Of a stretch of 64,000 nucleotides of DNA, positions 36,331 through 62,835 are shown piece by piece. Positions within the stretch are counted from its first letter, which is position 1. The number at the start of each line of letters is the position of its first letter. The position numbers and the translations under genes were made by a program. This DNA is from an uncultured Candidatus Saccharibacteria bacterium. Its GTDB lineage: Bacteria > Patescibacteriota > Saccharimonadia > Saccharimonadales > AWTP1-31. The stretch lies in the NCBI GenBank assembly GCA_964634445.1, contig CAZWJA010000001.1:10343-74342 (forward strand). Reading direction: 5' to 3'. The notes beneath the pieces are model-generated. The model was not told the DNA's origin, did not search any database, and saw only the letters and a list, made by a program, of their open reading frames with translations.

Positions 36331-36405
36331 TCCCGGGTAGCTCAATGGTGGAGCAAGAAGCTGTTAACTTCGAGGTTGTCGGTTCGAGTCCGACCCCGGG
36401 AGCCA
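36331..36405 (+). tRNA. tRNA-Asn (anticodon GTT)
   Basis: Manual cloverleaf fold. Acceptor TCCCGGG/CCCGGGA. D-stem GCTC/GAGC. Anticodon loop CTGTTAA. T-arm GTCGG-TTCGAGT-CCGAC. Encoded G-CCA. Confidence 0.85.
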
Positions 36406-36545
36406 GAGCAAGCAGTGAAAATCGCAGACCGGTTTCCAAGACCGAAAAGCACTTTCACTCCTTGCTCACCAAGGAAGTAAGATTGCCGATAACAAGGTTA
36501 CGATGTTGGAACCACCAGGAATGGTGGTTCTTTCATTTTTACCTC
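36399..36545 (+). repeat. Repeat unit R1: tRNA-Asn 3' end plus an about 140-nt structured downstream region
   Basis: A long-range stem (36406-36420 with 36453-36467) and a terminal hairpin plus T-run (36508-36540). A homologous copy R2 lies at 57247-57385. An internal partial copy lies at 36584-36623. Confidence 0.6.
36508..36540 (+). terminator. Rho-independent terminator downstream of tRNA-Asn
   Basis: GGAACCACC-AGGAAT-GGTGGTTC hairpin followed by TTTCATTTTT. Confidence 0.6.
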
Positions 36546-36663
36546 TGTTATTCAGTTATAACCGCGACTTGTCCAGCCCGAAGGAAGCAAGCAATGAAAA
36601 AACAGACCTGGTTCCTAGACCCGTCCTTTTACTGATTCAAAGAAAAAATGCGAGCTAGCTATG

Positions 36664-37527
36664 TCAGCTGAGACTGTGCATGAAACTTTTAATTTGCAAA
36701 TTCACATAATCGGGCTTCTCAGCCATCAATAAATGACCAGTGCCTTCCACAATATGAGTCCGTGTTGGTTGAAGGCGTTCGCAAAATTGCAGCCCATTTG
36801 CTAAAGGCAGAACACGATTTTGTTGACCCCAAAAGACCATGGTAGGAGGTAAGTGTGTTGGTCGAGCAAAATCATGACTGAATTTATTAAACGAAGATAG
36901 GCCTCTCTTCAGGTTTAGTCGTGACATTGTTTGTGTTGGGCTATGGGCCTCTTTACTCTCCGCTAGAAAAACTGGATCTGTAGGATTAGGCAGGGCCGCA
37001 TAGTTGGTGCGCACGGCGGTCGTAATCACACCAGGAATGTACTCAATCGTTTTCTGTGTAGCCACGTGAATCGGTTTTAAAAAACCAGGTAACGGTAAGC
37101 TCGCTAAGCGCACCAAAGGTGTCATCATGTCATGACCACCACAGAGATTAAACAAAATCAAAGCCTTCAGCCGTGAAGAATTTCGAATGCCATACTCAAG
37201 GGCGGCCGCTGCACCCACACAGTTGCCAACTAATGTAACATTCTTTAGACTGAGTTTCGATAAAATTTCATCAGTCATTTGAGTATAAAAATCGAGACCG
37301 TAAGTTACATTTGGACGATCCGAAGCACCGCACCCTAGCATATCAAAAGCAAACACACGATATTTTTTAGCGAAATACTGTATTTGATAGTGCCAGATCC
37401 AGTGCCCACTGCCACCATTGTGCAGAAACAGCATTGGCTCACCAGATCCGACCTCTATGTATTTAACAGTTCCTGAACCCAGGGATAGGCTTTTCATAAT
37501 AAAGACAGTATACATTCGGGAATTCAT
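36664..37527 (-). CDS. Alpha/beta-fold hydrolase (Cys in the nucleophile elbow: GNCVG)
   Basis: HNGGSGH oxyanion-hole-like N-terminus, nucleophile elbow LVGNCVGAAAAL, C-terminal His (GTGHLLM). Confidence 0.55.
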   Translation of the reverse strand: MNSRMYTVFIMKSLSLGSGTVKYIEVGSGEPMLFLHNGGSGHWIWHYQIQYFAKKYRVFAFDMLGCGASDRPNVTYGLDFYTQMTDEILSKLSLKNVTLVGNCVGAAAALEYGIRNSSRLKALILFNLCGGHDMMTPLVRLASLPLPGFLKPIHVATQKTIEYIPGVITTAVRTNYAALPNPTDPVFLAESKEAHSPTQTMSRLNLKRGLSSFNKFSHDFARPTHLPPTMVFWGQQNRVLPLANGLQFCERLQPTRTHIVEGTGHLLMAEKPDYVNLQIKSFMHSLS

Positions 37528-37637
37528 GATTACGTAAAAAGTTTTCTCTGAGTAGACCCATTTTCCAGATAATCGTTTATACTTACAATTAATAAAGTTC
37601 TGTTACCCTCGGTAGACTAAACTGCCCTAATCTAAAT

Positions 37638-38423
37638 ATGTCCAATCAAACTAGTACAATTGCCAAGAAAATGCACGGATCCGGCCAGCCGGTTGTATTG
37701 CTCCATGGGTTTGCACACTCGCACAAGTATTGGAACAAAGTGGTTAGACATATGCCACATGACAAATTTCATATCATTACACCTGATAGCATCGGATTTG
37801 GGATGTCGGACAAACCCACAGAACTAAACTATGACATCGATGACCATTCTGAAGAACTCGTAAGGGCACTCTTGAAACACGTTAGTCAGCCAGTAATTCT
37901 AGTTGGACACTCCATGGGCGCAATGATAGCGCTTAGAATCGCCAAACATCACCCACATTTAGTTCAAAAGCTTATTTTGATAAATCCTCCTCTTTTCACA
38001 AGTCCAGAGCATGCAAGACGCGTGATAATGAGTAAGCTGCCGCTACTTTACAAGGCTTATATTGGGAGACTAGGCATAGTTATCCACTCCATGAGAGATA
38101 GCTGGTTCATGGACTTTCTGCATACAACTTTATTGGCAAAAAATCCCGACTTGAGAGATATTGTCACTGATTACTTAAGTCACACGAGACGATCATTCAT
38201 CTATACCTTGCGAAACACCATATTTGCATACTCAATGTACGATGATCTCCGAGAACTCAAGACAAATACAAAATACATCTACTGCCCCAATGACCCATTC
38301 TACGACCCGGCATCACTTGCTTTCTTCAGTAAATATCCGAATATGCAAGCAGTTAAAATCTCTGGTGGCCACAAGATACCCTATGTTAATGCAGAACAGG
38401 TCGTTCATGAGATATGCGCTTAA
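37638..38423 (+). CDS. Alpha/beta-fold hydrolase
   Basis: HGFAHS oxyanion region, GHSMG nucleophile elbow, C-terminal GGHKIPY catalytic His region. Confidence 0.65.
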   Translation: MSNQTSTIAKKMHGSGQPVVLLHGFAHSHKYWNKVVRHMPHDKFHIITPDSIGFGMSDKPTELNYDIDDHSEELVRALLKHVSQPVILVGHSMGAMIALRIAKHHPHLVQKLILINPPLFTSPEHARRVIMSKLPLLYKAYIGRLGIVIHSMRDSWFMDFLHTTLLAKNPDLRDIVTDYLSHTRRSFIYTLRNTIFAYSMYDDLRELKTNTKYIYCPNDPFYDPASLAFFSKYPNMQAVKISGGHKIPYVNAEQVVHEICA

Positions 38424-38441
38424 AAAGGATGGGGGCTAAGT

Positions 38442-39011
38442 ATGCAACCATATCTGATCTTATTTTTCTTAAACTTCCTTGAAGGGTCTGTTATTACTCT
38501 TGGTGCTGGCCTATCTGCGCAGGCTACCCATCTTGACTACTGCTTAGCCCTACTGACTCTCATCACCGCCGACATCGTCAGTGATCTTTTCTACTATGGT
38601 TTGGGTAGATTTGGTGGGGGTATCCTTCACACAAAGTATGCAAGAATAATTGGCGTCACAGAGCATCATCTAGATTTGGTCGAAAGCTATTATTCGAAGC
38701 ATGGTAAAATTACGCTTTTCTTTGCTAAAATGTCTGACCTTCTAGCAATGCCAGCAGTGATCATTGCTGGTGCTATAAAGATGAAGCTCCGCGACTATAT
38801 TGCAGTCAGTGTTGTGACGTCCATTCTTAAAGCCGTTCTATTATTCTCAGCCGGATACTTACTCGGGAACAGTCTAGGCCGTAATGGTTTAGTGCTTATA
38901 CAAAATATGCTTAGCGGTCTATTTATTCTAATTTTAACAATCTTTATATTCCGCTATTTCTATGTCAAGATTAGACAAGATAAGGCTCTCAAAAGGAAAC
39001 TACGTCAGTAA
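38442..39011 (+). CDS. Small polytopic membrane protein (DedA/VTT-like?)
   Basis: Four to five hydrophobic segments. The family assignment is weak. Confidence 0.35.
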   Translation: MQPYLILFFLNFLEGSVITLGAGLSAQATHLDYCLALLTLITADIVSDLFYYGLGRFGGGILHTKYARIIGVTEHHLDLVESYYSKHGKITLFFAKMSDLLAMPAVIIAGAIKMKLRDYIAVSVVTSILKAVLLFSAGYLLGNSLGRNGLVLIQNMLSGLFILILTIFIFRYFYVKIRQDKALKRKLRQ

Positions 39012-39013
39012 TT

Positions 39014-39781
39014 ATGCAGCAAACTAAGCCATTATTTTGGGTTGTTATACCGTTCTTCAACGAGCAAAAGCTCATACTAAAAACTCTTGAGGCTTTAGAG
39101 CAGCAGAGTGATACAGATTTTGCGATGGTGTTAGTAAATAATATGAGCACCGACAAGTCCCCTCAAATTGTTCGGACATTTATTAAGCAACACCCAAGAC
39201 TAAATATCCATTTAATTAACGAGAAGCAGAAAGGCACTGGTGCAGCATCTGACACTGGCTTTCGTTATGCGATTCAACACGGCGCAACCATTGTTGCAAG
39301 AACTGATGCAGACGCATTGCCGTGCAAAGATTGGGTGCGTTTACTCAAACATGAGTTTGCAACCGGGGCACGTTTTGTTGGTGGGAGGTTGGCAGCACGA
39401 ACCGATGAACCAAACTACCGTTGGTATGACGGCTTCATCACCGCTATATTCGTGCGTATTTTTGAGCCTGCGCCGCGTATTTTCTACAAACGCCCAGGTC
39501 AACGCTATCCACTCTTTATGGTACCGGGTTTAAACATGGCTATAGACGCAAAATTATACTTGGAGGTGGACGGCTTTCCACGCTCAAGCATTGACGATAC
39601 AGACGAGGATCTTGAGCTACACCTAAAGGTTTGTCAGATTATTGATAAGTCACAAGCTCGCCTTAATAAGCAAGCACTCGTCTACGGCTCTATTCGGAAA
39701 GCGAAATCAATGGGTTATCTGAATATCATACTGTGGTACTGGAGTCGTAAACATAAACCGGACGTTATTGATGTCCGCTAG
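39014..39781 (+). CDS. Glycosyltransferase family 2
   Basis: VVIPFFNEQ, LVNNMSTDKS, DADALP (DxD). Confidence 0.7.
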   Translation: MQQTKPLFWVVIPFFNEQKLILKTLEALEQQSDTDFAMVLVNNMSTDKSPQIVRTFIKQHPRLNIHLINEKQKGTGAASDTGFRYAIQHGATIVARTDADALPCKDWVRLLKHEFATGARFVGGRLAARTDEPNYRWYDGFITAIFVRIFEPAPRIFYKRPGQRYPLFMVPGLNMAIDAKLYLEVDGFPRSSIDDTDEDLELHLKVCQIIDKSQARLNKQALVYGSIRKAKSMGYLNIILWYWSRKHKPDVIDVR

Positions 39782-40355
39782 TGCGCCAATTGCTTACATC
39801 TGTGTTATTCCAAAGACTGAGGTACATAACTATGTATCCACTCCTATGCCAGCTCATTACGAGGGTACGATTCGAGATGAATCAAGAATGGGCTATGCAA
39901 TTCTTGCAAATATATTAAAAAACAAATTCGGTGTCACCCATCATGTTAAAAATATACTCGCGAAGCCAAATGGCAAGCCTTACATTAAAGATAGTTCGAT
40001 TTGTTTTAACATTGCATACAGTCAGGATTATGTAGCTTGTGCAGTCGGCCAGCAAGAGATCGGTATTGACATTGAGCAGCCAAGAGAACTACACCCTAAA
40101 TTAATACTCAAACTACTGACCCCCGAAGAAATTGATGATGGCGTGGATCCGCTTCGGGCGTGGGTCATAAAGGAAGCATACAGCAAACTACTCGGCGCTG
40201 GACTGGCACTTGGTTTCGCATCAATATCAGTTGACACAATACTAGGCAGACAGCCACATTTTATTGTCCCGAACAAACTGTATACCTGTGCAGTTTTTTA
40301 CGAGAATCCAAACACAATGGTAAAGATCCAATATACACTTGAGGATACATTATGA
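39768..40355 (+). CDS. 4'-phosphopantetheinyl transferase (Sfp-type)
   Basis: PPTase motifs FNIAYSQDYVACAV, GIDIEQ and WVIKEAYSKLLG. Confidence 0.75.
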   Translation: MMSASAPIAYICVIPKTEVHNYVSTPMPAHYEGTIRDESRMGYAILANILKNKFGVTHHVKNILAKPNGKPYIKDSSICFNIAYSQDYVACAVGQQEIGIDIEQPRELHPKLILKLLTPEEIDDGVDPLRAWVIKEAYSKLLGAGLALGFASISVDTILGRQPHFIVPNKLYTCAVFYENPNTMVKIQYTLEDTL

Positions 40356-41332
40356 AGCGAGTACTGATAACAGGCGCAACGGGCTTTTTGGGCAGTTACA
40401 CAGTTGCAGAGTTTAGTAAGCACGGGTATTACGTTATAGCGACTGGGCGCGATCAGGAAAAGCTTGCTAAGCTCAAACCTGCCGCAAACGAGACAATCAC
40501 ATGTGACTTGAGCAACCTAGCTAAAAAACGCGTGAAGGCGGATGTGGTCGTGCATATTGCAGCACTATCTACTATCTGGGGCAGTTGGGCCGACTTTTAT
40601 AATGCGAACGTCCTTGGTACACAACAGGTTATCTGGTTTTGCCAGAAAAACGCTATCAAAAAATTAGTGTTTATATCATCACCAAGTATTTATTCAAGCA
40701 GACAGCATCGCCTAAATATTCACGAATCAGCGTATAACCCGAAAAATAAGCTTAATAACTACATTCGCTCAAAAATTGCTGCCGAGAAATTGGTGCAAGC
40801 GGCCAATAATAACAACCTGCATACTGTCATTTTAAGACCACGTGGCATTTTCGGAATCGGCGATACCAGCATCGTGCCACGTTTAATCAAGGCGAATAAC
40901 ACCATTGGCCTACCGCTTATTAATAATGGCCAAAACCAGGTTGATATGACCTGTGTTGAAAATGTGGCCCACGCCATACGCTTAGCCGTGGAGTCTCAAA
41001 AAGCGAACGGACACACATACAATATTACCAACGGTGAGCCGCGCTCCTTTAAGGACATTACCGAGAAACTCCTTAAAGATATCAACCAAAAACCTCGCTA
41101 CAAACGCTTATCTCCAAACAGTCTCTATGCCATGGCTACAGTTTTGGAGCATGCCTATCGTTTGTTACGTATACCTAACGAACCAGCCATAACAAGATAT
41201 ACTGTGTGTACGCTGGGTTATTCGCAGACACTTGATATATCTAGTGCAAGGAAAGACTTAGGCTATGCACCGATAATTAGTCTTAACGCAGGACTTAAGA
41301 AATATGCCGACAACTACACAAAAAATAACTAG
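40352..41332 (+). CDS. NAD-dependent epimerase/dehydratase family (extended SDR)
   Basis: N-terminal ITGATGFLGS Rossmann motif and YIRSK (YxxxK) catalytic motif. Confidence 0.75.
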   Translation: MKRVLITGATGFLGSYTVAEFSKHGYYVIATGRDQEKLAKLKPAANETITCDLSNLAKKRVKADVVVHIAALSTIWGSWADFYNANVLGTQQVIWFCQKNAIKKLVFISSPSIYSSRQHRLNIHESAYNPKNKLNNYIRSKIAAEKLVQAANNNNLHTVILRPRGIFGIGDTSIVPRLIKANNTIGLPLINNGQNQVDMTCVENVAHAIRLAVESQKANGHTYNITNGEPRSFKDITEKLLKDINQKPRYKRLSPNSLYAMATVLEHAYRLLRIPNEPAITRYTVCTLGYSQTLDISSARKDLGYAPIISLNAGLKKYADNYTKNN

Positions 41333-42116
41333 TGTGCAGTATTACAACTGTGGGAATTGTGTGAACAGGCTTGGCTTTGTATATCGAAATCAGAGTTTTC
41401 AAAAACGCGTGTTCCCGTCAGGGGTATTTTTGATTAAGCATTCAAAGTATGGTTACGTATTGTTTGACACAGGCTATTCGCTCAATATCTACAAAACAGG
41501 TTGGCGTGGTTGGCTCTATCGACTATTAAACCCGACTCATGTCAGCCGGGAGGAAGAGATTGACGTCCAGCTTAAAAAAGATGGTATTACACCAAAAGAC
41601 ATTCAATATGTAGTTTTATCACATCTCCATCCAGACCACATTGGCGGTTTAAAATTCTTTAACCAGAGCCAGTTTATTATCACTAAAGATAGCTACCGCG
41701 CATATCAACATCCACACACTACAGATCTTCTTTTTCCGGCACTGCTGCCAAATTGGTTTGAGTCACACATCCTGAAGTTAGAAGATATGCAGCTAAAGCT
41801 AGCTACGCACACTGGGTTGGCTGGCTACGATTTATTTGGCGATGGCACGCTAATTCTCACACCGCTCGAAGGTCACACAAATGGCCATTTAGGGGCATTT
41901 ATCCCTGGTGAATTATTGCTAGCCGGCGATGCTTGTTGGGGCGAAGATCTCATGAAGCCGTCAAGAAACATGCGTCGTATTATTAACCTAATTCATCATG
42001 ACCACGGAGCGTTTTTGAAGACACTACATACACTGAGCCGCCTTAAGCAGCAAGGAGTAAGGTTATGCTTCAGCCATGACCAATATGAACAGAAGGAACT
42101 TCTGCGTGCAAAATAA
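41304..42116 (+). CDS. MBL-fold metallo-hydrolase
   Basis: HLHPDHIGG (HxHxDH) zinc-binding motif. Confidence 0.65.
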   Translation: MPTTTQKITSVQYYNCGNCVNRLGFVYRNQSFQKRVFPSGVFLIKHSKYGYVLFDTGYSLNIYKTGWRGWLYRLLNPTHVSREEEIDVQLKKDGITPKDIQYVVLSHLHPDHIGGLKFFNQSQFIITKDSYRAYQHPHTTDLLFPALLPNWFESHILKLEDMQLKLATHTGLAGYDLFGDGTLILTPLEGHTNGHLGAFIPGELLLAGDACWGEDLMKPSRNMRRIINLIHHDHGAFLKTLHTLSRLKQQGVRLCFSHDQYEQKELLRAK

Positions 42117-43401
42117 ACTCACAACACTCCGTTATTTTGCAGAAACACGCTGGTTCAAGAAATTTAATTCGCGGAAAGAACTCCAGACATTTCAGGAAAA
42201 AATGGTCATAAAACATATGGCATTTCTTAAAGATAATTCACCTTTTTTCGCTAAGCTTCCCCTGATTACGAATATGGATGAGTTCAAACAGCTGCCGCTC
42301 ATGGACAAATCTGTGATGATGAAGGATTTTAATGCCATGAATACACTTGGGTTAGATAAAGACAGGGCGTTAAAAATCGCTATCAAAAGTGAGAAGTCAC
42401 GAAACTTCACGCCTACTTATAACAGCATATCGGTTGGTCTTTCGTCAGGAACAAGTGGACACAGGGGCTTATTCTTAGTAAGCGACAAGGAGCGTAGTGC
42501 TTGGGCTGGCGCGGTACTCGGTAAATACCTACCACCAGGGAAGCCATTTGGTCACCGTATTGCGTTCTTTCTGCGCGCCAACAACAACCTGTATGAAACT
42601 ATTAACTCTCGTTTTATTACGTTTCGTTATTTTGACATCTATAAGGATATGTCTAAAAACCTTAACGAGCTTGCAAGTTATCAACCATCTATAATTGTCG
42701 CCCCACCGTCAGTACTTAGTGTTATAGCCAATCAACTTGAAACAGGAGAATTATCAATACATCCCCATAAGATTATCTCTGTAGCCGAAGTATTAAACCC
42801 TCGAGATGAATTGCGTTTTAAAAAAGTATTTAGCCAGGGTATTATTTTTCAGGCCTATCAATGTACTGAGGGCTTTCTAGCCCATACCTGCCAGCAAGGC
42901 TCGCTGCACCTTAATGAAGACACTGTCTACGTTGAGAAGGAATTTCTAGACGCAAAGCGGTTTGTGCCCATAATTACCGATTTTCGGCGACGTTCGCAGC
43001 CAATCATACGTTATCGACTAAACGACATACTGGTTTTATCAAAAAAGCATTGCTCTTGTGGCAGCGCTATGACAGCTATTGAGCGCATCGAAGGTCGTGA
43101 AGATGATATTTTCCTATTCAAAAACCAAGCCGGTGAAACCGTCCAAGTATTCTCGGACATGATTGGACGCTGTATGCTCTATGTTAAAAATATAAAAGAT
43201 TACCGAGTAGTACAGACCGATTACACAAAATTAGTTATCCATCTGGATGATATAAATGCAAACACTAAGCAGGCGATAAGACACGAGATCACTAAACTTG
43301 CCCAAAAACTATCCTTTAAGACGCCAGAATTGGAATTTGTGGCCTATGAGCTCGATTTGAGTAGAAAATTAAAGCGAATTGAGAGACAATTTAGTAAATG
43401 A
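42076..43401 (+). CDS. Adenylate-forming enzyme, PaaK / coenzyme F390 synthetase-like (ANL superfamily)
   Basis: LSSGTSGHRG P-loop-like AMP-binding motif, typical of PaaK/F390-synthetase/LuxE-like acyl-adenylate ligases. Confidence 0.6.
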   Translation: MTNMNRRNFCVQNKLTTLRYFAETRWFKKFNSRKELQTFQEKMVIKHMAFLKDNSPFFAKLPLITNMDEFKQLPLMDKSVMMKDFNAMNTLGLDKDRALKIAIKSEKSRNFTPTYNSISVGLSSGTSGHRGLFLVSDKERSAWAGAVLGKYLPPGKPFGHRIAFFLRANNNLYETINSRFITFRYFDIYKDMSKNLNELASYQPSIIVAPPSVLSVIANQLETGELSIHPHKIISVAEVLNPRDELRFKKVFSQGIIFQAYQCTEGFLAHTCQQGSLHLNEDTVYVEKEFLDAKRFVPIITDFRRRSQPIIRYRLNDILVLSKKHCSCGSAMTAIERIEGREDDIFLFKNQAGETVQVFSDMIGRCMLYVKNIKDYRVVQTDYTKLVIHLDDINANTKQAIRHEITKLAQKLSFKTPELEFVAYELDLSRKLKRIERQFSK

Positions 43402-44339
43402 ATAGTATAAGAAATTGCCGTATTGCAGGCTATGGTACGTATTTACCTAAGCAAACCGTAGAGTTTGAGGGGCAGACACGCTATCGAATATCTGGAGACG
43501 AAGATCAACTATCCATGGCTGTAGCTGCGTGCAAACAGGCTCTCGAAACTGCAAAACTAGATATTAATAATATCGACTGCATCGTCTCTGCCAGCGCTGT
43601 CGGCATCCAACCTATCCCATCTACGGCAGCACTGATCCATGAACAGCTTGCCCTCGGTACTAGTATTCCCGCACTCGACATCAACACAACGTGCACCAGC
43701 TTTCTAACGTCGTTAGACACAATGTCATACCTTGTTGCAGCTGGTCGCTATAAAAATGTTCTTATAGTTTCCAGTGAGGTTGGCTCGCTAGGCTTAAACC
43801 CTAAGCAACGGGAAAGCTATGAGCTATTCTCTGATGGTGCTGCAGCAATTGTGTTATCAACCCACACTGAACCATCCCAGGGAATTATTGCCAGTATGCA
43901 GTCAACGTGGTCTGAGGGCGCACATTCAACTGAAATCAGAGGTGGATTAACTGGCTTTCATCCAAAAAATTACAGTGAAGAAACCAAAGAAGATTACATG
44001 TTTGATATGGATGGTCGAACGGTTTTGCGTATTGCCGCAACGCATTTGCCAGAAATGTTTAACGAATTTATGACTAATTACGGTATTGGCTTTAAAGATG
44101 TTGACGTTATCATCCCACACCAGGCGAGCCGCGCACTGGATATGATCATGCGGCGTATGGGAGCACCGACCGGGAGCTACATTAACTGGGTACCGGAATA
44201 CGGCAATATGGTTTCAGCGTCAGTGCCATTTATTCTTTGTAAGCTTCTTGCAGACGGTAAGCTACAGAGAGGCGATAAAGTGTTATTATGTGGGACAGCC
44301 GCAGGTCTCACTGCGAATATTGTTGTGATGGAGGTTTAA
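43398..44339 (+). CDS. 3-oxoacyl-ACP synthase III-like (FabH/KAS III family)
   Basis: Active-site Cys context NTTCTSF, then HQASRAL (His) and GNMVSASVP (Asn). Collinear with FabH. Confidence 0.75.
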   Translation: MNSIRNCRIAGYGTYLPKQTVEFEGQTRYRISGDEDQLSMAVAACKQALETAKLDINNIDCIVSASAVGIQPIPSTAALIHEQLALGTSIPALDINTTCTSFLTSLDTMSYLVAAGRYKNVLIVSSEVGSLGLNPKQRESYELFSDGAAAIVLSTHTEPSQGIIASMQSTWSEGAHSTEIRGGLTGFHPKNYSEETKEDYMFDMDGRTVLRIAATHLPEMFNEFMTNYGIGFKDVDVIIPHQASRALDMIMRRMGAPTGSYINWVPEYGNMVSASVPFILCKLLADGKLQRGDKVLLCGTAAGLTANIVVMEV

Positions 44340-44340
44340 T

Positions 44341-44580
44341 ATGTTAGAAGATGTTCAAGAAATTATTTACAAAGAGTTTGATATTGAAATAGATAAGCTC
44401 ACTCCTGAGGCAAATCTCAGGAATGATCTACACATTGACAGTATGGCGGCAGTGAATTTGTCTTTTGAGATTGAAGATCGTTTCAAGATTAAAGTTACCG
44501 ACGAAGAACTTGCTGGTCTTACTACTATTAACGACATTTTAAAGCTTATCGAATCTAAAGGTGTATCAGGAAAAAACTAA
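44341..44580 (+). CDS. Acyl carrier protein
   Basis: 79 aa with the phosphopantetheine attachment motif DLHIDSMAAVNL (DSx). Confidence 0.8.
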   Translation: MLEDVQEIIYKEFDIEIDKLTPEANLRNDLHIDSMAAVNLSFEIEDRFKIKVTDEELAGLTTINDILKLIESKGVSGKN

Positions 44581-52095: not shown

Positions 52096-52519
52096 CCGTT
52101 TCTGCTAGACCAGCCAGTTGAAGGGCTCTGGAAACAGCATCAGCTTGCTCGGGGGTTAACTCTTGCTGGATTGCCTCAATACGGGCATCGACTTCTACAC
52201 GCGTTCGATATGCTCCATGATGATGCTTGAGCCAAAACATGATGGCGGTCATGTTTTGGCCTTTAATTGCACTGATCAACTGCGCTTCTGCCAAATCATT
52301 GACGACATGTGCGCTTTGCTCGATTGCTTCGTCACAGGCTTCGGCGAAAGCTTCATCGTCCTTACGCCAACGGTAGTAAGTAGCACGAGACAAGCCTAAT
52401 TGCTTGCAAGCCGCTTCAACGATTGGCGTTTTAGCCAATTTGGCCAACAATTTCTTCTTATCGGCTTCTTGATTACGACTCATAACTTGACCCGCTTCTC
52501 GCCGGTGAGCTTTTCCCAA
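52067..52519 (-). CDS. HTH DNA-binding protein, terminase small subunit-like
   Basis: ACKQLGLSRATYYRWRKDDEAF helix-turn-helix. 29-nt overlap with the TerL-like gene. Confidence 0.45.
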   Translation of the reverse strand: MGKAHRREAGQVMSRNQEADKKKLLAKLAKTPIVEAACKQLGLSRATYYRWRKDDEAFAEACDEAIEQSAHVVNDLAEAQLISAIKGQNMTAIMFWLKHHHGAYRTRVEVDARIEAIQQELTPEQADAVSRALQLAGLAETDASDATNKI

Positions 52520-54523: not shown

Positions 54524-54699
54524 TTCAATACCTCTGCTATATATTTTACCAAAGATAACTTTTTTACTTCTTATGGTATCTGGTAAATAATACTACACCT
54601 TTTAGCTAGAAAACACCAGATATAGCGGAGTATAATACTGCCAGAACGCTATAAGGTAACAAAAACACCTAAAACACGTTCACTACAACCAGGATACTT

Positions 54700-55707: not shown

Positions 55708-56374
55708 TAAATACGATAGGGAGGCACGATTTGCACCAGCTATCTTATGTTCGGCGCCATTTGTTGCAGTTGGTTTCTACATGCTCAGTCAGGTTGATCT
55801 GGAGTTTTGGAAATTAATATTTACTCTCGGCGTCGGCGGAGTGACCATGACATACGCCTTGTATCAACTCGCATTTCACAGCTGCCGCTGGGCCGGTAAA
55901 TATTTGGAGGAGAAACTTTTTGACGAAGGTCGTAGCTTTCCAACGACCAGCTTCTTATTAGACAACGACAACACATGCAGTGCTGATCGCAAGGTCGCAA
56001 TTATCAAGAAGTTAAAGTCGGATTTTGGGATCGATCTTAAAGGTAAGACCGAGGATTCGTTGCAGAACAGAATTGTGATTCATGAGGCTATTGGGCAGAT
56101 TCGTAAAAAGTTCTTCAAAAAAGATACTTTGCTATTACAACGCAATATTCAATTCGGCTTTGCAAAGAACCTTACGGGTGGCTCAGCTGTGGCTGCGATA
56201 GTATCAGGGCTTGGGTTGATTGTTTGTTCAATCTTCAGTGCCACTGTCGCCTCACAAACGCTCGCAATACTACTAGGCATTTATACGGTGATGACTATCG
56301 TTAGTCTTTGGGCTACAAGATTCACAGCCAAACACTACGCAATCACATTGTTTGATGAATTCCTTGGAAGCTGA
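55595..56374 (+). CDS. Hypothetical membrane protein
   Basis: Several hydrophobic segments. ORF only. Confidence 0.35.
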   Translation: MLLMAKAYVIITMHQFVPIGQQQHWCLLCPSSRLAVADKYDREARFAPAILCSAPFVAVGFYMLSQVDLEFWKLIFTLGVGGVTMTYALYQLAFHSCRWAGKYLEEKLFDEGRSFPTTSFLLDNDNTCSADRKVAIIKKLKSDFGIDLKGKTEDSLQNRIVIHEAIGQIRKKFFKKDTLLLQRNIQFGFAKNLTGGSAVAAIVSGLGLIVCSIFSATVASQTLAILLGIYTVMTIVSLWATRFTAKHYAITLFDEFLGS

Positions 56375-56411: not shown

Positions 56412-56996
56412 CTATTTCGCTTTTATAGTAACATGTTGTTGCTTGAGCTTATTTCTCTCCTCTTGAAGCCGCCGTTCTTCATCTATAACATCAGCAATAT
56501 TTGGATTGTCTTTGCGCAGAATAATGAAAGGGCCGTGTGGAATTGGTCTAGCCTTAATCTTACCTTGGCGGATAAGCTTACGAATTGTTTGGGTGTGCAG
56601 CCCAGATTTCCATGATAGAGTGGCGTCAGGGATGGACTTTTTGTGATCCCAGTCGCCACAAAGCGATCCTGGAATCTTCTTTTTGTTAACAGCATCTTGG
56701 CAATTTATACATTTAAAGCCCCATTTGTCATACCAACCGTCTTCTTCATAGACACTACGGCCACAAAGGGAGCAGTTTCGGCCTTCGCCAGCCATCGAAA
56801 AGCCCTTTGGTTCGGTCTCAAGCCGCTTCTTCAGGGCACGTTGCTTCATGTCCATCTCAACCAATGTGTCGACAAAACCGATCAGGTTTCGAGCAGCCTC
56901 TTCGTATTCGGCGTCAGTTTCGTACTTTATGTCTTTTTCTTCGCAGATTTCCTTAAATTCTTTTAGGTGTTTTTCGGTAATCTTGTAATACTTCAT
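56412..56996 (-). CDS. Hypothetical protein with Cys-rich zinc-ribbon-like segment
   Basis: CSLCGRS...CINCQ...CGDW cysteine cluster. Probable start is the ATG at 56996 (MKYYKITEKH) rather than the upstream TTG of the track. Confidence 0.4.
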   Translation of the reverse strand: MKYYKITEKHLKEFKEICEEKDIKYETDAEYEEAARNLIGFVDTLVEMDMKQRALKKRLETEPKGFSMAGEGRNCSLCGRSVYEEDGWYDKWGFKCINCQDAVNKKKIPGSLCGDWDHKKSIPDATLSWKSGLHTQTIRKLIRQGKIKARPIPHGPFIILRKDNPNIADVIDEERRLQEERNKLKQQHVTIKAK

Positions 56997-57149
56997 TGGA
57001 CTGCTCCTTTCGCTTCTTATCCGTGTAAATATCGAGTAGTAGTTCCGCAAACGCCATGGCGTCTCGCTTCATCAATTCTTCTCGGGTTAACTTGTGCGGC
57101 TTTTGTTTGGGTTTCTTCGATAACTTCGCCATAAAGCACCTCCTTCGTC

Positions 57150-57254
57150 TACTAAAAATGAGACACTTCTGACTATAGGCCTGCTGTGTCTCATTCGTCT
57201 CATTTTAGGTACCATAACTCCTTAGAAAGGTCCGTGACCTGTATGCGGAGCCAG
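57150..57254. repeat. Island-end repeat (copy 1): hairpin AAAATGAGACAC...GTGTCTCATT plus half-site CGTCTCATTTT plus degenerate tRNA-Asn 3' remnant
   Basis: About 75% similar to 62742-62835. 57226-57254 resembles tRNA-Asn positions 49-76 (GTCCGTGACC..GCGGAGCCA against GTCGGTTCGAGTCCGACCCCGGGAGCCA). Confidence 0.55.
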
Positions 57255-57385
57255 AGCCAGCAGTGAAATATAGTGACCAGTTCCCGTGATCTGTCCTTGA
57301 TTCACTCCTGACTCAGACAAGAAAGATGCTAGCCTTAACAACTAGCAAAAAATGTTGGAACCACCTGAAAGGGTGGTTTTTACAT
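57247..57385 (+). repeat. Repeat unit R2, homolog of the tRNA-Asn downstream region R1
   Basis: Shares GGAGCCAGAGC-AGCAGTGAAA, the internal TTCACTCCT segment and the GGAACCACC..GGTGGTT T-run hairpin with R1. About 70% identity overall. Confidence 0.55.
57357..57382 (+). terminator. Rho-independent terminator-like hairpin in R2
   Basis: GGAACCACC-TGAAAG-GGTGGTTTTT. Same stem as the R1 terminator but a different loop. Confidence 0.5.
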
Positions 57386-57509
57386 ATTCATCTCTGAAAT
57401 AAAGTTCTAGAGCCGACCTGTCCCCTATACGGGGGCTGGACAACCGAAAACCTGACCTGGTTCCATGATCTGTTCCTACCGACTAATTACTAAGTTATAA
57501 TTAAACGCA

Positions 57510-58154
57510 ATGAAACAGTATATTCTACTAGATTGGGATGGTAATTTAGCGAAGACCTTAGATATTTGGCTGGATGCCTGTAGAGTTGCACTTGAGAATC
57601 AAGGCGTTCATAAAACCGATGAAGAAATTGGTTCAAGCTTTGGACAATTTACTCATTACATGAAGGATTGGGGCGTTCCTGACATTGATCGAGCCATAGC
57701 CGAGGCAGATGTAATTGCCAAGAAAAAGCTACCCGATGTAGATCTTTACCCAGATGCTTTGATTGTTCTCGAAACACTTAAAAAGAGTGGCAAGAAGCTG
57801 GCCCTCATAACAACTTCACCTCACGAGAACATTGCACATCTTCTTGAAAAACATGGGCTCAAAGAAACATTCGATACCATTGTGGCTGCCGACGACACAG
57901 CAAATCATAAGCCACACCCTGAACCGCTAGAAGTCGCCTTAAGCAGACTTGGTGGGAGTAAGAGTGAAGCAGTGATGATTGGTGATTCCGATAAGGATTT
58001 GGGTGCCGCACAAAATGCCGAGATTGACTCAGTGCTCTTTTACCCCGATGAACATAGAAGGTTTTATGATCTAGAAAAGCTCAAAACTTTAAACCCAACT
58101 CACATTGTCAGTGATTTTAAAGAGGTGCTTGAGATAGTTGATCGACAAGCTTGA
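57510..58154 (+). CDS. HAD-superfamily hydrolase (phosphatase-like)
   Basis: Motif I LLDWDGNL (DxDG), and motif IV IGDSDKD. Confidence 0.7.
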   Translation: MKQYILLDWDGNLAKTLDIWLDACRVALENQGVHKTDEEIGSSFGQFTHYMKDWGVPDIDRAIAEADVIAKKKLPDVDLYPDALIVLETLKKSGKKLALITTSPHENIAHLLEKHGLKETFDTIVAADDTANHKPHPEPLEVALSRLGGSKSEAVMIGDSDKDLGAAQNAEIDSVLFYPDEHRRFYDLEKLKTLNPTHIVSDFKEVLEIVDRQA

Positions 58155-58779
58155 TATTTGAGTTCTCAATTTGTAGTTTTGTAACTATCCCTTCCGCGAA
58201 TGCTGTCATCTCGCTTTCAGTTCCTTTTGTAAGCACATATCTAGAGTATTCGATGAGCGGTATGTCTAGTTCACGTTCAACTTTGTAGTGGTTGAAAAGG
58301 GTGCTAGTAACGTTGTGGTGTTTCTCGGCTTTGGCCATCAGTTTGTCGCTGAACCGCATTTTTTCGTGATTAGCTTCAATGAATTCTAGTAGCTTTTCGC
58401 AGAGTGTTGGTTCATTGATGTATTTCTCAGGACAGTTTGGATCTTTGCGTCTGGTGCAATTGTAGTAGATGAACCGCTTAACTTCACCACTTTTTAATGT
58501 CTTATACTTATCCTGAGCAGTTATATCAGCTCCGCACCGACCACACTTTAGTAGACCTCTGAAGGCAAACGTCTTTGAACCCCAGACCCCCTTATAGGCA
58601 CCTTTGCTCAGCTGTACTTGGTCATAGAGCTCCTTAGATATCAGCGGTTTGTGCGCACCTTGGTACCATGGTGCATCAGGAGCTTCGGGATATTGAAACT
58701 TACCGTAGTAGAAGGGGGTACTTAGTATCACCAGTACCTGACTTAGGCTTACCTGAGCTAAGTTTGTAGGCAGTCGCAA
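58117..58779 (-). pseudogene. Truncated large serine recombinase (C-terminal recombinase/zinc-ribbon part only)
   Basis: The 220 aa are collinear with residues about 215-425 of the 48411..49688 recombinase and about 75% identical to them. The catalytic N-domain is absent. A pyridoxamine-oxidase-like gene follows where the N-terminus should be. Confidence 0.7.
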
Positions 58780-58809: not shown

Positions 58810-59256
58810 ATGGACGAAAAAGTAAAAACATTGCTCCAGACAATTCGGTATGCAACTATCTCCACTATCGATAGTGATGGTAAACCGTGGGCTGCACCAG
58901 TTTGGTATGTATTTGACGAAGATCACAACATCTACTGGTGGTCACCGACAGAAGCTCAGCACTCCAAAAATATTGCAGACAACCCTGATGTTTATATAAC
59001 TGTATTTGATTCAACCGCGCCAGAGAGCGATGGGTTTGGGTTATATATGCGAGCAGAAGCTGGAGTAGTCGCCGGTGATGAACTCGATTCGGCTATTAGC
59101 TTGTATAACCAATCGACGAAAATATTTAAGCTAAGTCGAAAAAACTGCACTGATGATGCGCCCACGAGAATGTATAAAGCGAACATTCTGCAGAAGTGGG
59201 TTAATGATGGTACTGAACAAGATGGCTTCTATATTGATAAGCGGGTTCAAGTATGA
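58810..59256 (+). CDS. Pyridoxamine 5'-phosphate oxidase-like FMN-binding split-barrel protein
   Basis: YATISTIDSDGKPWAAPVWYVFDEDHNIYWWS pattern typical of the PNPOx-like fold. Confidence 0.6.
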   Translation: MDEKVKTLLQTIRYATISTIDSDGKPWAAPVWYVFDEDHNIYWWSPTEAQHSKNIADNPDVYITVFDSTAPESDGFGLYMRAEAGVVAGDELDSAISLYNQSTKIFKLSRKNCTDDAPTRMYKANILQKWVNDGTEQDGFYIDKRVQV

Positions 59257-60116
59257 ATACCATAGTGATCACCTCAACTCCAGAGCTTTGGAAAGAAGCG
59301 CAAAAGACTGGTGAGTACACACGCTCAACTATTGACTCAACACTCGAAGAAGTTGGGTTTATCCATGCTACTAACCCAGATCAGACAATCGCAATGCTTA
59401 ATCGGCACTTCACCGAAAGGAATGACATACTACTACTTGTCGTTGGTCTCGATAAAGTTAAGCCCGAAGTAAGATTCGAAGCACCGTTAAGTAGTAGCGC
59501 TGGCATCTACCCGCATATATACGGGCCACTAAATGTAGATGCAGTTATTGATACCTACATGCCTACCAAGGATTCGTCGGGAAAATTCACAGATTCTAGG
59601 CTAAAAACTGTCCACGACAGCACTACTCCAACTCCTGGCCAGCAAGTTATTACGGCTTGCGCGTTTATTCACCAAGAGTTTAATGGCGTGCAGAAAGTCT
59701 TTATGGCTAAGCGAGCTGACACTAAAAAGTTTTTGCCAGGTGTGTATGAATTACCTGGTGGGCATATTGATTTCGGAGAAACCACTGAAGATGGTTTGGT
59801 GCGTGAGATCCAAGAAGAGTTTGGTGTAACTGTACGCCTCGGCGACCCTTTTGCAGTCTTTACTTACCAAAATGAAGTTAAAGGTTCGCATTCCATTGAG
59901 GTCATTTACTTTGCTCAGCTTATTGATCCAGACACAGATGTAAAACCAAACCCAGAAGACCACAGCACTTGTGGCTGGTTTAGCGAAGCAGAACTGCCTC
60001 AAACCTTTGTGAGCGAGAAAGATATCGAGGACGATGAAGTAAAAGCAATCTACCGAGGCTTTGATTTGCTTAAAGGTGGTTCACTTGACTTTGGCGCAGA
60101 TCGAGAGGTGCTATGA
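59253..60116 (+). CDS. Two-domain protein: N-terminal DUF952-like domain fused to a C-terminal NUDIX hydrolase
   Basis: N-terminal about 110 aa resemble DUF952. C-terminal Nudix box GGHIDFGETTEDGLVREIQEEFGV. Confidence 0.6.
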   Translation: MNTIVITSTPELWKEAQKTGEYTRSTIDSTLEEVGFIHATNPDQTIAMLNRHFTERNDILLLVVGLDKVKPEVRFEAPLSSSAGIYPHIYGPLNVDAVIDTYMPTKDSSGKFTDSRLKTVHDSTTPTPGQQVITACAFIHQEFNGVQKVFMAKRADTKKFLPGVYELPGGHIDFGETTEDGLVREIQEEFGVTVRLGDPFAVFTYQNEVKGSHSIEVIYFAQLIDPDTDVKPNPEDHSTCGWFSEAELPQTFVSEKDIEDDEVKAIYRGFDLLKGGSLDFGADREVL

Positions 60117-60781
60117 AAAGACACTACATAATCTACTCACACGGCTTCGGAGTTCGTAAAGATGATCGTGGTCTCATGACAGATATTGCTGCAGCTTTAC
60201 CTGAGTGCGAACATATTCTTTTTGACTACAATACTTTTGACGAAGTCACCAACACTATGACGGTCAGTCCACTTAATGCTCAAGTTGCGAAACTGAAAGA
60301 GAAGCTTGAAAGCCTTGGGAACGATCCTAATACAACTATTGATCTAGTCGCTCACTCTCAGGGTTGCATCGTTGCTGCAATTGCAAAGCCAACGAATGTA
60401 CGAAAGATGTTATTTCTTGCCCCGCCAGATAACCTAGATAAAGACAAACTTATTAAATTCTTCGGTGATCGGCCGGGGAGCCAAATTAATGTAGAGGGGG
60501 AGTCTCGCATTCCACGACGTGATGGGACAACTACTATTATTCCTGCATCCTACTGGAGGAGTATTGAAGCACCACAACCCATACGACTCTATAACCGACT
60601 ACCTGCTCACTCTGAGGTCAAATTCTATATTGCCAATGACGATGAAGTACTTGGCATGTCCAACTTTGACCAGACTGATCAAGCAATAGAGTTAATTCAA
60701 GTGCCTGGGAACCACGATTTTAATGGTGAATACAGAAAACCACTTTTGGAGATGCTAAAACAGGAGGTAGAAGATGTCTAG
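60113..60781 (+). CDS. Alpha/beta-fold hydrolase (esterase/lipase-like)
   Basis: Nucleophile elbow LVAHSQGCIV (GxSxG). Small single-domain size. Confidence 0.6.
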   Translation: MKRHYIIYSHGFGVRKDDRGLMTDIAAALPECEHILFDYNTFDEVTNTMTVSPLNAQVAKLKEKLESLGNDPNTTIDLVAHSQGCIVAAIAKPTNVRKMLFLAPPDNLDKDKLIKFFGDRPGSQINVEGESRIPRRDGTTTIIPASYWRSIEAPQPIRLYNRLPAHSEVKFYIANDDEVLGMSNFDQTDQAIELIQVPGNHDFNGEYRKPLLEMLKQEVEDV

Positions 60782-61508
60782 GGTATCAATTCTCCAATGG
60801 AATATTTGGTATCTCGAAGACATTAAGAATATTGCTCAATTCTTGAGTGAAAACAAAGCGGATGTAATTTGCTTGCAAGAGCTTACGATCAACTTCGATA
60901 AGCAAAACAATATTCATACACCAAACTATATTGCCGAGCAACTTGGCTGCCATGTCTATTTTCAAGAAATAGCTTTTGCAGGTAAAGAGATGAAGCTCGC
61001 CAATGCCGTGTTTAGTAAATATCCAATCACGAATACTAGAACAGTCTGGGTAAATAAGGATCAAGGCTCTGGCAATTTTGACGATGAAAACCGTGCCTAT
61101 GTTGAAGCCACGCTTGATGTAGGTGGGGAAGAACTGACGATCGGTACGGTTCACATGTCATACACGCATAAATTTGAACCATCGGAGCGCAAACTAGCTG
61201 AAACTACGAATCTAGTTGAAGCAATTGAGCAAAACAAGAAACGATTCGTGCTAACAGGGGACTTTAATGCCGTACCAGGATCTCAAGTACTTACTGCTAT
61301 TGAACAGGCTTTAACGAACTGTGGTCCAGAATATAGTGTAAATACTTGGACGACAAAGCCATTTTCTTACGGTGGCTTTGAAGCAAATACATTAGATTGG
61401 CGACTAGACTATATATTTGCTACGAATGACATTAAAGCTTCTAAAGCACAAATTCTAAGTACCAGTTACTCTGATCATCTACCTGTTTTAGTTGAAATTG
61501 AACTATGA
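60774..61508 (+). CDS. Endonuclease/exonuclease/phosphatase (EEP) family protein
   Basis: ILQWNIWY, VICLQEL, TGDFNAVP and SDHLPVLVEI motifs of the EEP fold. Confidence 0.7.
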   Translation: MSRVSILQWNIWYLEDIKNIAQFLSENKADVICLQELTINFDKQNNIHTPNYIAEQLGCHVYFQEIAFAGKEMKLANAVFSKYPITNTRTVWVNKDQGSGNFDDENRAYVEATLDVGGEELTIGTVHMSYTHKFEPSERKLAETTNLVEAIEQNKKRFVLTGDFNAVPGSQVLTAIEQALTNCGPEYSVNTWTTKPFSYGGFEANTLDWRLDYIFATNDIKASKAQILSTSYSDHLPVLVEIEL

Positions 61509-62746
61509 AGAAAGAGTTCCTCACATTTCCAAGAAGTGCAAAACTCTATCTGGTAAGCCAATTTTTATTGAGTGGCTACTATACTTGGCCATTCTGGTAT
61601 GGATTTGCCAGTGGTAGGATAACAGCTTCGCAGTTCGGTATTTACCTAGCTATTGTATATATCGTTGGGCTTATATCTGAAGTTCCTACAGGTGCATTTG
61701 CGGATAGATATGGTAGAAAACTCAGTGCAGTTATCGGTGCCATAGGTGGTGCGCTAATACCGCTCATTGTTTTTGTTGGTGGTAACTTCACTGCCTATAT
61801 CATTGCTGGGGTTATCTCCGGTATAAGTAGTGCTTTTGTAAGCGGAAGTCTCGAATCGTTAATACGAGATTTGCCGAATATGAGCAAAGAGCTGTATCGC
61901 AAGATTATGGTACAAGACACGTTCTTTTACCAAAGTGGCTTAATTGTTTCGTCTGCCGTGGGTGGTTTTATGTACAGTCTTAGTCATCCTTTGCCATTTG
62001 TAGCACAGGCGGCATCATTTATTCTCGCGGCAATCGTGATTGCGCAGATATCATCCGAAGGTGAAGTTATTGCAGTGCGCGAATCATCAGCAGATACAAC
62101 CAGAAGAACACGACTAAAGGAATATATCGGTAGCACAAAAGAGGGCTTCTTACATCTATTTAAAGCTAAGATTATCAGACCGCTGATTGTATTTGGATGC
62201 ACATTGAGTATTCTGATGTGGCTTTGTATTGAATATATAAATGAAGCAGCAATGATTCATTACGATATTCAGCCAGAATTGAGGGGATTGTTAATTGCGG
62301 GTACAAAAGTGATTGCGTTACTAATTCTCAACACCATCGTTATCAAAAGAGTTAAGACCGATGAACAGAAACTACTATATCTGCTCTTTATGACACTCGG
62401 GGTATTTAGCCTCTACTCACTTGGCGTTAAGAGTATCTTCTTACTAGCCTTCCTCGGATTTAACCTCGTATCGTCCATTAACTCCAACTTTATAAAACCA
62501 ATTCTGCACGATCACATCGAGAGCAAGTGGCGAGCTACTTCAATTAGTGCTTACAGTTTCGTTTCAAACCTAGTCCAAGCTATTGCAAGTGTTGGGGTTG
62601 GCTTTATGTTACAAAAACAAGGTGTGATTTTTGTACAGCGAGCCTTTCTTGCACTCTTCGTTCTTGTGGCACTGCCGGCGTTGCTTATTTACCTGCCGCG
62701 TACTAAGCCTGGAGAAAAGTCCACGCAAAACCCTGTTATCTCCTAA
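61505..62746 (+). CDS. MFS-type transporter
   Basis: About 12 hydrophobic segments. Loop motif GAFADRYGRK between TM2 and TM3. Confidence 0.65.
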   Translation: MKKEFLTFPRSAKLYLVSQFLLSGYYTWPFWYGFASGRITASQFGIYLAIVYIVGLISEVPTGAFADRYGRKLSAVIGAIGGALIPLIVFVGGNFTAYIIAGVISGISSAFVSGSLESLIRDLPNMSKELYRKIMVQDTFFYQSGLIVSSAVGGFMYSLSHPLPFVAQAASFILAAIVIAQISSEGEVIAVRESSADTTRRTRLKEYIGSTKEGFLHLFKAKIIRPLIVFGCTLSILMWLCIEYINEAAMIHYDIQPELRGLLIAGTKVIALLILNTIVIKRVKTDEQKLLYLLFMTLGVFSLYSLGVKSIFLLAFLGFNLVSSINSNFIKPILHDHIESKWRATSISAYSFVSNLVQAIASVGVGFMLQKQGVIFVQRAFLALFVLVALPALLIYLPRTKPGEKSTQNPVIS

Positions 62747-62835
62747 AAAGCGAGACATTCTCATAACATGCCACTTTGTGTCTCATTTATCTTGTTTATA
62801 CCTGTTAAAGAGTTCGTGACCTGTCCGCAGAGCCA
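62742..62835. repeat. Island-end repeat (copy 2) with degenerate tRNA-Asn 3' remnant
   Basis: AAAAGCGAGACAT...GTGTCTCATTT...AGAGTTCGTGACCTGTCCGCAGAGCCA. Homologous to 57150-57254. Confidence 0.5.

Follow-up and report, generated by a model that had tools for sequence, protein, structure and literature searches.

Two related integrative elements at a tRNA-Asn gene of Candidatus Saccharibacteria: a probable tandem array built by a large serine recombinase

Tyrosine integrases classically target tRNA genes, and Saccharibacteria, with genomes of about 1 Mb, have few known routes of gene gain. The subject here is positions 36406-62835 of a 64,000-nt stretch of DNA assigned to a Candidatus Saccharibacteria chromosome (the window), a block that directly follows a tRNA-Asn(GTT) gene and encodes a large serine recombinase (LSR). 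Genes for tRNA or tmRNA (t(m)RNA genes) are used by 44.5% of tyrosine-integrase elements as against 4.9% of serine-integrase elements (PMC7192596); Mageeney et al. counted 14 of 297 serine-integrase elements at t(m)RNA genes, and in 2020 the use of such a gene by a large serine integrase was described as not reported before and still needing to be proved (PMC7192596). Bulk predictions of Saccharibacteria prophages give no details of att sites or integrases (PMC10746230), and our literature search found nothing linking Saccharibacteria with a genomic island, a tRNA and a recombinase. A close likeness is to the tycheposons, or additive islands, of Prochlorococcus (Hackl et al., 10.1101/2020.12.28.424599), which are likewise small site-specific elements at tRNA 3' ends of a streamlined genome, stand in tandem arrays whose youngest and most variable members lie by the tRNA, are in some cases cargo-carrying and in others PICI-like (see below), and move metabolic and defence genes. 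Tycheposons have a tyrosine recombinase in 910 of 937 cases, partial tRNA copies and many primase/helicase modules; the family described here has an LSR, no tRNA duplications, no replication module that we could find, a core of TerL, TerS and ParB-methylase genes, and a Saccharibacteria host.

Among phage satellites, the phage-inducible chromosomal islands (PICIs) have tyrosine integrases, a primase-replication initiator with an origin, and de-repression by a helper phage. The present family resembles them in its shared core of 9-12 kb, its packaging genes without a virion set, its accessory and defence cargo, its site-specific integration and, in cargo-free relatives, an integrase at one end and a regulator with its operator at the other; it differs from them in that no replication module was found and in its full-length TerL, which is unusual for classical PICIs. 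The serine integrases of SPbeta (SprA), A118, TP901-1, phiC31 and Bxb1 integrate into protein-coding genes or intergenic sites. They share with the window's enzyme the three-domain recombinase, the short, imperfectly dyad att sites with a small core and no long repeats at their flanks, and an integrase gene by attP, and are set apart from it by its shortness (425 aa) and by its arrays, which would imply that hybrid sites are tolerated as targets. In the filamentous Ralstonia phage phiRSM the integration site is a tRNA-Ser gene, at its 3' end. Its small serine recombinase, of a type known as a site-specific integrase (PMC7192596), is resolvase-sized and without Recombinase and Zn-ribbon domains.

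Set beside these systems, the block at 36406-62835 is very probably a tandem array of two related integrative elements, here called A and B, mobilised by an LSR and with attachment sites centred on the CCA end of tRNA-Asn. Its layout would be tRNA(B)/P', element A, P/P', element B, P/B'. A crossover in or next to the hexamer GAGCCA would leave the tRNA intact, the incoming element would supply a new structured trailer and terminator (P'), and the old trailer (B') would be pushed to the far end; A would have integrated into the tRNA/P' junction of an older B, which would then have lost its catalytic domain and body. Like a tycheposon locus, the block has an intact tRNA, an empty site in a relative and three junctions delimiting two units; the tyrosine recombinase and partial tRNA copies of such loci were not found. 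We regard the family as a variant of the tRNA-linked integrative islands, new in the kind of variant. Related loci and contigs compared with the window are labelled L002-L096, and the features that define the ends are as follows.

36331-36405, plus strand: intact tRNA-Asn(GTT) gene (ARAGORN; Rfam, 63.6 bits), its 3' part the putative B half-site of attL
36406-36624, plus strand: P' zone of element A (left end), with a two-stem hairpin, a terminator and a partial internal repeat
57157-57253, plus strand: right end of element A, with inverted repeat AATGAGACAC-N19-GTGTCTCATT (57157-57195) and putative P half-site AAAGGTCCGTGACCTGTATGCGGAGCCA (57226-57253)
57254-57473, plus strand: P' zone of element B, with a hairpin (57254-57314) and a weakened terminator near 57357-57380
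62750-62835, plus strand: right end of element B, with a degenerate operator repeat and putative P half-site AGAGTTCGTGACCTGTCCGCAGAGCCA (62809-62835, core 62830-62835)
62836-62908, plus strand: B' arm, the probable displaced ancestral trailer of tRNA-Asn, homologous to the post-tRNA sequence of L007, with copies in L008, L003 and L069

Upstream of tRNA-Asn lie an ATP synthase operon, smpB and a NUDIX gene. SmpB has its best identity (81%) to Candidatus Saccharibacteria genomes, in most of which tRNA-Asn is found downstream of smpB, and by SmpB, NUDIX and tRNA-Asn synteny the window is assigned to a Saccharibacteria (TM7) chromosome; an exact-protein look-up of SmpB returned two short metagenome contigs of the same strain and nothing more. 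The initial annotation had proposed an intact tRNA-Asn(GTT) with a block of two units inserted at its 3' end, and had suggested looking in relatives for a tRNA followed directly by sequence homologous to that beyond the block. These proposals held. In L007, a tRNA whose 3' 30 nt are identical to the window's is followed directly by AGCCATGTTAGATGAAGTCAGAAC...GTTCTGACTTTTT...AACTGAAAC, a trailer homologous to window positions 62836-62908 and present also in L008, L003 and L069. With the same tRNA directly joined to the homolog of B', L007 is read as the empty site, and because of it 36406-62835 is taken to be inserted DNA; each of the two units within it has its own left and right end. In the window the terminator hairpin stem and T-run of B' have decayed, as would be expected once the trailer no longer follows a tRNA. 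Across 36-64 kb the tRNA was the sole Rfam family matched. A contig from another sample (L002, logan SRR19591715) is 100% identical to window positions 36000-36428 and stops 23 nt into P'; this end may be an assembly break from the repeat, or it may reflect strain heterogeneity at that junction.

GAGCCA occurs at three junctions (36400-36405, 57248-57253 and 62830-62835), so placed that the tRNA is followed by two units in a row, each running from a left end to a right end, and then by the flank. Over the 28 nt that lead up to the second and the third junction, 22 positions agree, the next best match anywhere in the window being 18, and the homology of the right ends reaches about 100 nt upstream (57150-57253 against 62740-62835). 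Homology continues past the junctions for about 220 nt (36406-36624 against 57254-57473, 75-78%, in constant register), so that the units share left as well as right ends. The right-end repeats had earlier been described as degenerate remnants of the tRNA 3' end, the first of them ending at 57254 and each preceded by a homologous unit of about 70 nt with a hairpin. The repeats are real, the middle GAGCCA ending at 57253 rather than 57254, and the preceding unit is present and extends to about 100 nt, with one hairpin partner decayed in the distal copy. Their likeness to the tRNA is weak: the two repeats match its 3' end at 15/28 and 16/28, values reached by 78 and 21, respectively, of 127,946 28-mers in the window, and the resemblance consists mostly of GAGCCA and GGT(T/C)CG. 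Yet the P arm is 80-92% alike in L026, L044, L045, L050, L069 (twice), L006 and L010, and the T-arm of the host tRNA differs among genomes that share it; a match to the tRNA at chance level together with such conservation across genomes argues for selection on a sequence of the element rather than for decay of a host copy. By these comparisons the supposed remnants are an element-borne P half-site of a serine-recombinase attachment site and not decayed tRNA copies, and the P arm would look tRNA-like because the same recombinase must bind both P and tRNA half-sites. The inverted repeat on the P side is perfect in A (AATGAGACAC at 57157, GTGTCTCATT at 57186); in B, GTGTCTCATT is kept (62778) and its partner is degraded to GCGAGACAT (62750). 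It is conserved in sequence without covarying and lies upstream of a leftward helix-turn-helix (HTH) gene, of which it is most likely the operator or promoter.

With many arms stacked, an RGKTC motif is seen 21-25 nt from the junction in all four half-site types, arranged with dyad symmetry; a by-eye search for inverted repeats in single att sites gave nothing. In the tRNA the motif falls in the T-loop GGTTCGA, which lies 19-25 nt before the junction. The forms of the motif are as follows.

Half-site B (tRNA T-loop): GGTTCGA
Half-site P: AGTTCGT
Half-site P', reverse complement: CGGTCTG / TGGTCAC
Half-site B', reverse complement: AGTTCTG

The att sites are imperfect dyads, as serine-integrase sites are expected to be; their only common core is GAGCCA, without a long direct repeat. 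The P' zone starts identically, at the first base after GAGCCA, in L054 (tRNA/P') and in L044 and L026 (P/P'), which confines the exchange to GGAGCCA or its edge, and the crossover would accordingly be placed within or next to GAGCCA. In distant clades GACC is found at +17 to +23 after tRNA-Gln, tRNA-Trp, tRNA-Ser and tRNA-Asn, which suggests that the universal T-loop may be a fixed anchor easing target switching. Two further arrangements were seen at tRNA-Asn. An internal junction by the LSR of L043 (12091-12130) joins a genuine tRNA-Asn 3' fragment (GGTTCGAATCCAGCCCCGGGAGCCA) to P', 7.5 kb from an intact tRNA/P' junction. Exact direct repeats (17-18 nt) of the tRNA-Asn 3' end are present in L006 (11143-11160 and 11291-11308) and L008 (10678-10694 and 10853-10869), where they bracket mini-inserts of about 150-175 bp, each with its own terminator after it; these repeats are the signature of a different, tyrosine-integrase-like element at the same tRNA.

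The genes of element A are listed here in window order.

36664-48391, plus strand: cargo slot 1, filled by a 12-kb acyl carrier protein (ACP)-dependent lipid or polyketide-like cluster
48411-49688, minus strand: intact LSR, 425 aa, with Resolvase, Recombinase and Zn-ribbon domains
49795-50379, minus strand: DUF4352 protein, conserved core
50590-52095, minus strand: TerL, conserved core
52067-52519, minus strand: TerS-like HTH protein, conserved core
52480-53799, minus strand: ParB-N6/N4 DNA methylase, conserved core
53888-56374: variable slot 2, with a 211-aa open reading frame (ORF; minus), a metallo-beta-lactamase (MBL)-fold protein (plus) and a 259-aa ORF (plus)
56412-57132, minus strand: end-proximal regulator or excisionase-like gene, with a weak HTH_17 match

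The intact serine recombinase, terminase-like genes and ParB-methylase that had been read in the first segment were thus all recovered. The LSR matches PF00239, PF07508 and PF13408, all above cut-off, and the phrog_95 integrase at 6e-60; its N-terminal motif YARKSSESDERQ is visible, and an exact-protein look-up gave no match. No tyrosine recombinase is encoded in 36-64 kb (no Phage_integrase match). A metagenome scan returned 53 LSR loci, which were judged for linkage where the LSR was full-length and at least 69% identical, enough downstream DNA was available and no P/P' junction was present. All loci so judged (L037-L043, L045-L048, L050, L052, L054 and L055, of which L038 and L039 are the same sequence) have a convergent tRNA-Asn 0.25-8.6 kb off. 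L005 has the LSR at 63%, TerL at 78% and the ParB-methylase at 85% identity, with the LSR stop 240 bp from tRNA-Asn, and across L005 and the tRNA-Asn-linked loci, 15 related loci in all, LSR identity to the window's enzyme is 62-87%. LSR clades about 50% identical are convergent to tRNA-Gln (L057, L060, L061, L063, L064, L086), tRNA-Asn (L068, L071-L073, L075, L080), tRNA-Trp (L029, L070) and tRNA-Ser (L034), giving convergent linkage of LSR and tRNA in more than 25 loci overall. These associations mark the LSR as the integrase of this element family, part of a coherent clade at tRNA 3' ends for which recognition by T-loop mimicry is plausible; such short enzymes with compact, well-defined sites may be of interest to genome engineers.

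It had been remarked as unusual that the only recombinases are serine-type and that the intact one lies mid-island. The serine type is no anomaly, the LSR being the integrase of this family, and the position is explained by a variable cargo slot between the 3' end of the LSR and P': the gap between LSR and att is 0.25 kb in L037, L041 and L005, where the slot is empty, up to 8.6 kb in relatives, and 12 kb in the window. In A the slot is filled by the 12-kb cluster, in B by a HAD gene. A joint near 49.75 kb, which would have made the first island itself composite, was not borne out, as there is no P arm or P' match there and L026, L027, L044 and L054 all keep the gene order TerL-DUF4352-LSR. 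In L026 (2516-4989) the cargo slot contains genes for an APH-family phosphotransferase and for an ABC-F-type ATPase; genes of both kinds are associated with antibiotic resistance.

The P' zone adjoins the LSR in L037 and L041, occurs without a tRNA at the middle junction of the window, inside L043 and inside L069, and is absent from the empty site L007; judged from this distribution, it travels with the LSR and not with the tRNA. That 36406-36624 might be the native trailer of the tRNA had been suggested by L014 and L011, which have P' without an LSR, and this reading was ruled out by the absence of the zone from L007 and its place beside the LSR where no tRNA is found. In A the zone consists of a covarying hairpin (36406-36467) with the apical motif AGACCnnGTTCCnnGACC, a conserved terminator (36508-36531) and a partial internal repeat (36541-36624) resembling the P-arm/P' junction; in B, P' and the preceding P arm form a P/P' (attP-like) junction between the units. 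The two-stem hairpin directly follows GAGCCA, and all 19 copies (two in the window and 17 in L011-L069) fold singly. In alignment 87% of cells are paired as against 81% in shuffles, double changes occur in 11-12 pairs (stem variants include GTGAAA/TTTCAC, GAGAA/TTCTC, GGTAAAT/ATTTACC and GTTAAA/TTTAAC), and the covariation score of 0.28-0.30, as against 0.19 for shuffled alignments, was reached by 0 of 500 shuffles. These values come from single-sequence folds and a hand-given structure; RNAalifold on the MAFFT alignment, in which one subgroup is shifted by 1 nt, returned the terminator only, and covariance-model realignment left the shift in place. The hairpin has no Rfam match and is a candidate new RNA element, and P' would take the place of the tRNA trailer and may give rise to an RNA when the element is integrated and not otherwise.

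Element B contains the following genes.

57510-58154, plus strand: HAD hydrolase, cargo slot 1 of B
58117-58779, minus strand: truncated serine recombinase, the C-terminal 202 aligned residues, without the catalytic domain
58810-62746, plus strand: non-phage genes in the gutted body (PNPOx-like, DUF952-NUDIX, hydrolase-like, EEP nuclease/phosphatase, MFS transporter)

The distal element had been taken to be decaying and to carry a 5'-truncated copy of the same recombinase. Decay is apparent in its truncated LSR, lost HTH gene and degenerate operator, by which B is classed as a decayed unit. The recombinase is indeed truncated, with its catalytic domain lost; at 71% protein identity to residues 222-423 of the intact LSR it is a relative and not a copy of the same gene. 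A, which is intact and proximal to the tRNA, would be a later arrival than B, which is gutted and distal, and this arrangement fits an array that grows from its tRNA end, as the islands of Prochlorococcus do. P/P' junctions or several P arms are also found in L026, L044, L043, L069 and L058. L026 and L044 share 93% identity as far as about 100 bp beyond the P/P' junction, after which they are unrelated, so these are probably array junctions and not free attP; the remainder of the L026 contig was not retrieved by a ParB-methylase scan. L069, a close relative with the same B' trailer, contains a truncated LSR, a P' zone in its interior and a pair of P arms (8870, 11198-11338, 15373). One of its units lies downstream of B', at a junction that has no tRNA as its left arm and may therefore be a secondary site. 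Several homologous ...CTCACTCCCAGCCA arms in L058 suggest arrays at tRNA-Gln too.

The family core has the order HTH, slot, ParB-methylase, TerS, (TerL), slot, LSR, slot, att. In two units both ends could be placed, and the distance from tRNA to P arm is 12.2 kb in L045 and 11.4 kb in L050; the core of A is 8.8 kb long. Searches of all ORFs of at least 80 aa in 48.4-57.3 kb against Pfam and PHROGs found no portal, capsid or tail genes, the lone 'tail protein' match being the MBL-fold domain of 54700-55707, and none was found in about 40 family loci; the portal, major capsid, tail and lysis genes of an intact temperate tailed prophage are not assembled here. Neither primase nor replication-initiator domains were detected in the window element, L045, L030, L050 or L026, and the helicase domains in these elements belong to restriction-like proteins. 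At the position of slot 2 relatives carry defence genes. Cargo across the family includes Type ISP restriction-modification (L037, 183-5087), an MmeI-like enzyme with a helicase and T5orf172 (L030, 1464-7422), HEPN, T5orf172-ResIII and an Eco57I-type methylase (L045, 878-5709), a TIR-like protein and DUF6119 (L050), type III restriction-modification (L084, 4235-9849), and reverse transcriptase, VWA and AAA_5 proteins (L034, 11496-17608). With terminase genes and defence cargo and without capsid or tail genes, the family has more the look of a satellite or a defence island than of a prophage, and may have a satellite lifestyle; no helper phage was identified. The gene at 56412-57132 is 61% identical to the P-arm neighbour in L026 and 57% to that in L045. 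It is split into a 59-aa ORF (56953-57132) and a 212-aa ORF (56412-57050) in another frame, with about 100 nt of overlap, and L026 is split likewise; either two genes or a frameshift that has been conserved may lie behind the split.

Accretion by tyrosine integrases is the usual mechanism at tRNA genes (on the percentages in PMC7192596), and under it the displaced tRNA 3' copies at 57226 and 62809 would have decayed and the serine recombinases would be passengers. The elements in L006 and L008 that leave exact 17-18-nt repeats of the 3' end at the same tRNA, and the genuine tRNA 3' fragment at the internal junction of L043, would agree with it. We nevertheless consider it highly unlikely for the window: the enzyme it calls for is not encoded in 36-64 kb, the supposed remnants agree with the tRNA at 15-16 of 28 positions and are yet 80-92% conserved where tRNA T-arms differ, the LSR is convergently linked to tRNA genes in more than 25 loci, and the half-sites are dyad-symmetric and form no long direct repeat. 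A single event, in which a dimeric or duplicated element was inserted once, or a local tandem duplication was followed by divergence and decay of one copy, would account for the same end architecture and orientation of both units and would avoid having a canonical LSR integrate into an occupied site. This too appears quite improbable, since the divergence of A from B (LSR 71% at the protein level, P' 75-78% at the nucleotide level) equals that of A from elements in other genomes, the cargo of A and B is unrelated, and similar arrays with unlike neighbours occur in L026/L044, L043, L069 and L058. It is doubtful, finally, that the block is fixed debris of one or two ordinary tailed prophages without present mobility. 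TerL, TerS and ParB-methylase are typical of phage late operons, several relatives are classed as viral by IMG/VR, and element B is clearly debris; portal, capsid and tail genes are nevertheless missing from the roughly 40 loci, including L050 and L045, which are bounded at both ends, the space between core genes is taken by restriction-modification, HEPN, TIR-like, reverse-transcriptase and metabolic genes, and many genomes retain the core gene order at 60-90% protein identity, a sign of a small, self-contained element under selection.

Several observations weigh against the tandem array of LSR-mobilised elements that we prefer. Past the 73-nt B' trailer the right flank is syntenic with no fetched relative, and as synteny ends there the empty-site argument draws on a short sequence, though one found in four genomes. 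The array model does not account for the 4 kb of metabolic genes in B. No excised or circular form was found, nor a terminal overlap in any whole contig, and present-day mobility is something that we infer. The nearest solved LSRs were matched weakly (E ~1e-6); sequence matches to the TP901-1 integrase and SprA are likewise weak. A recombination directionality factor was not identified among the genes, the one candidate being the HTH_17-like gene at 56412-57132. Canonical LSRs recombine only attP with attB, and a second integration into an occupied attL, to which half-site similarity and the order of the array point, would be non-canonical. That the LSR accepts tRNA/P' as a target is plausible, since P' and B' share the distal motif.

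The cargo of slot 1 in A comprises two alpha/beta hydrolases, VTT/DedA, GT2, a phosphopantetheinyl transferase (PPTase), an NAD-epimerase/reductase, an MBL-fold protein, an AMP-binding-like protein, KAS III, ACP (44341-44580), an acyltransferase (AT), a FabF-like ketosynthase (KS) and an acyl-AMP ligase. The KS is 56-59% identical to Firmicutes FabF and has no relative among viral contigs. L090 (1255-12879) has the same cluster at 88% nucleotide identity over 9.3 kb, in a different slot between TerS/ParB-methylase and a different LSR (51% identical), and because of this placement the cluster is taken to have moved between elements. In L094-L096 a reduced PPTase-ACP-AT-KS-ligase module lies inside a polysaccharide locus, which hints at lipidation of an envelope glycan. 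Clusters of ACP, KS, KAS III, AT, PPTase and acyl-AMP ligase occur in Saccharibacteria in the window, L090 and L091-L096. Saccharibacteria are thought unable to make their own lipids and to depend on their host for them; if functional, the cluster bears on the view that these epibionts cannot build acyl lipids. The family marks a hotspot that is used repeatedly and serves as a carrier of defence genes, of resistance-like genes (L026) and of this 12-kb lipid cluster. It is possible, and we propose it tentatively, that it represents a class of capsid-less, terminase-bearing, satellite-like islands in Saccharibacteria and related bacteria of the candidate phyla radiation (CPR), moved by a clade of short LSRs through a T-loop half-site (GGTTC), switching between tRNA-Asn, tRNA-Gln, tRNA-Trp and tRNA-Ser targets, re-using occupied sites to form arrays, swapping the tRNA trailer for a hairpin and terminator (possibly a small RNA of the integrated state), and shuttling defence systems and an ACP-dependent lipid pathway.

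Two further regions of the window may be mentioned. Beyond B', at 62909-64000, GC falls to 34% and there are two minus-strand ORFs, one of 132 aa and one encoding a leucine-rich repeat (LRR) protein; these genes have no homolog near tRNA-Asn in relatives, and the region may be another variable one. At 6351-6425 a tRNA-Gln(TTG) gene, with no recombinase nearby, is followed by a 2060-aa ORF (6542-12724); tRNA-Gln is the target type of a sister LSR clade.

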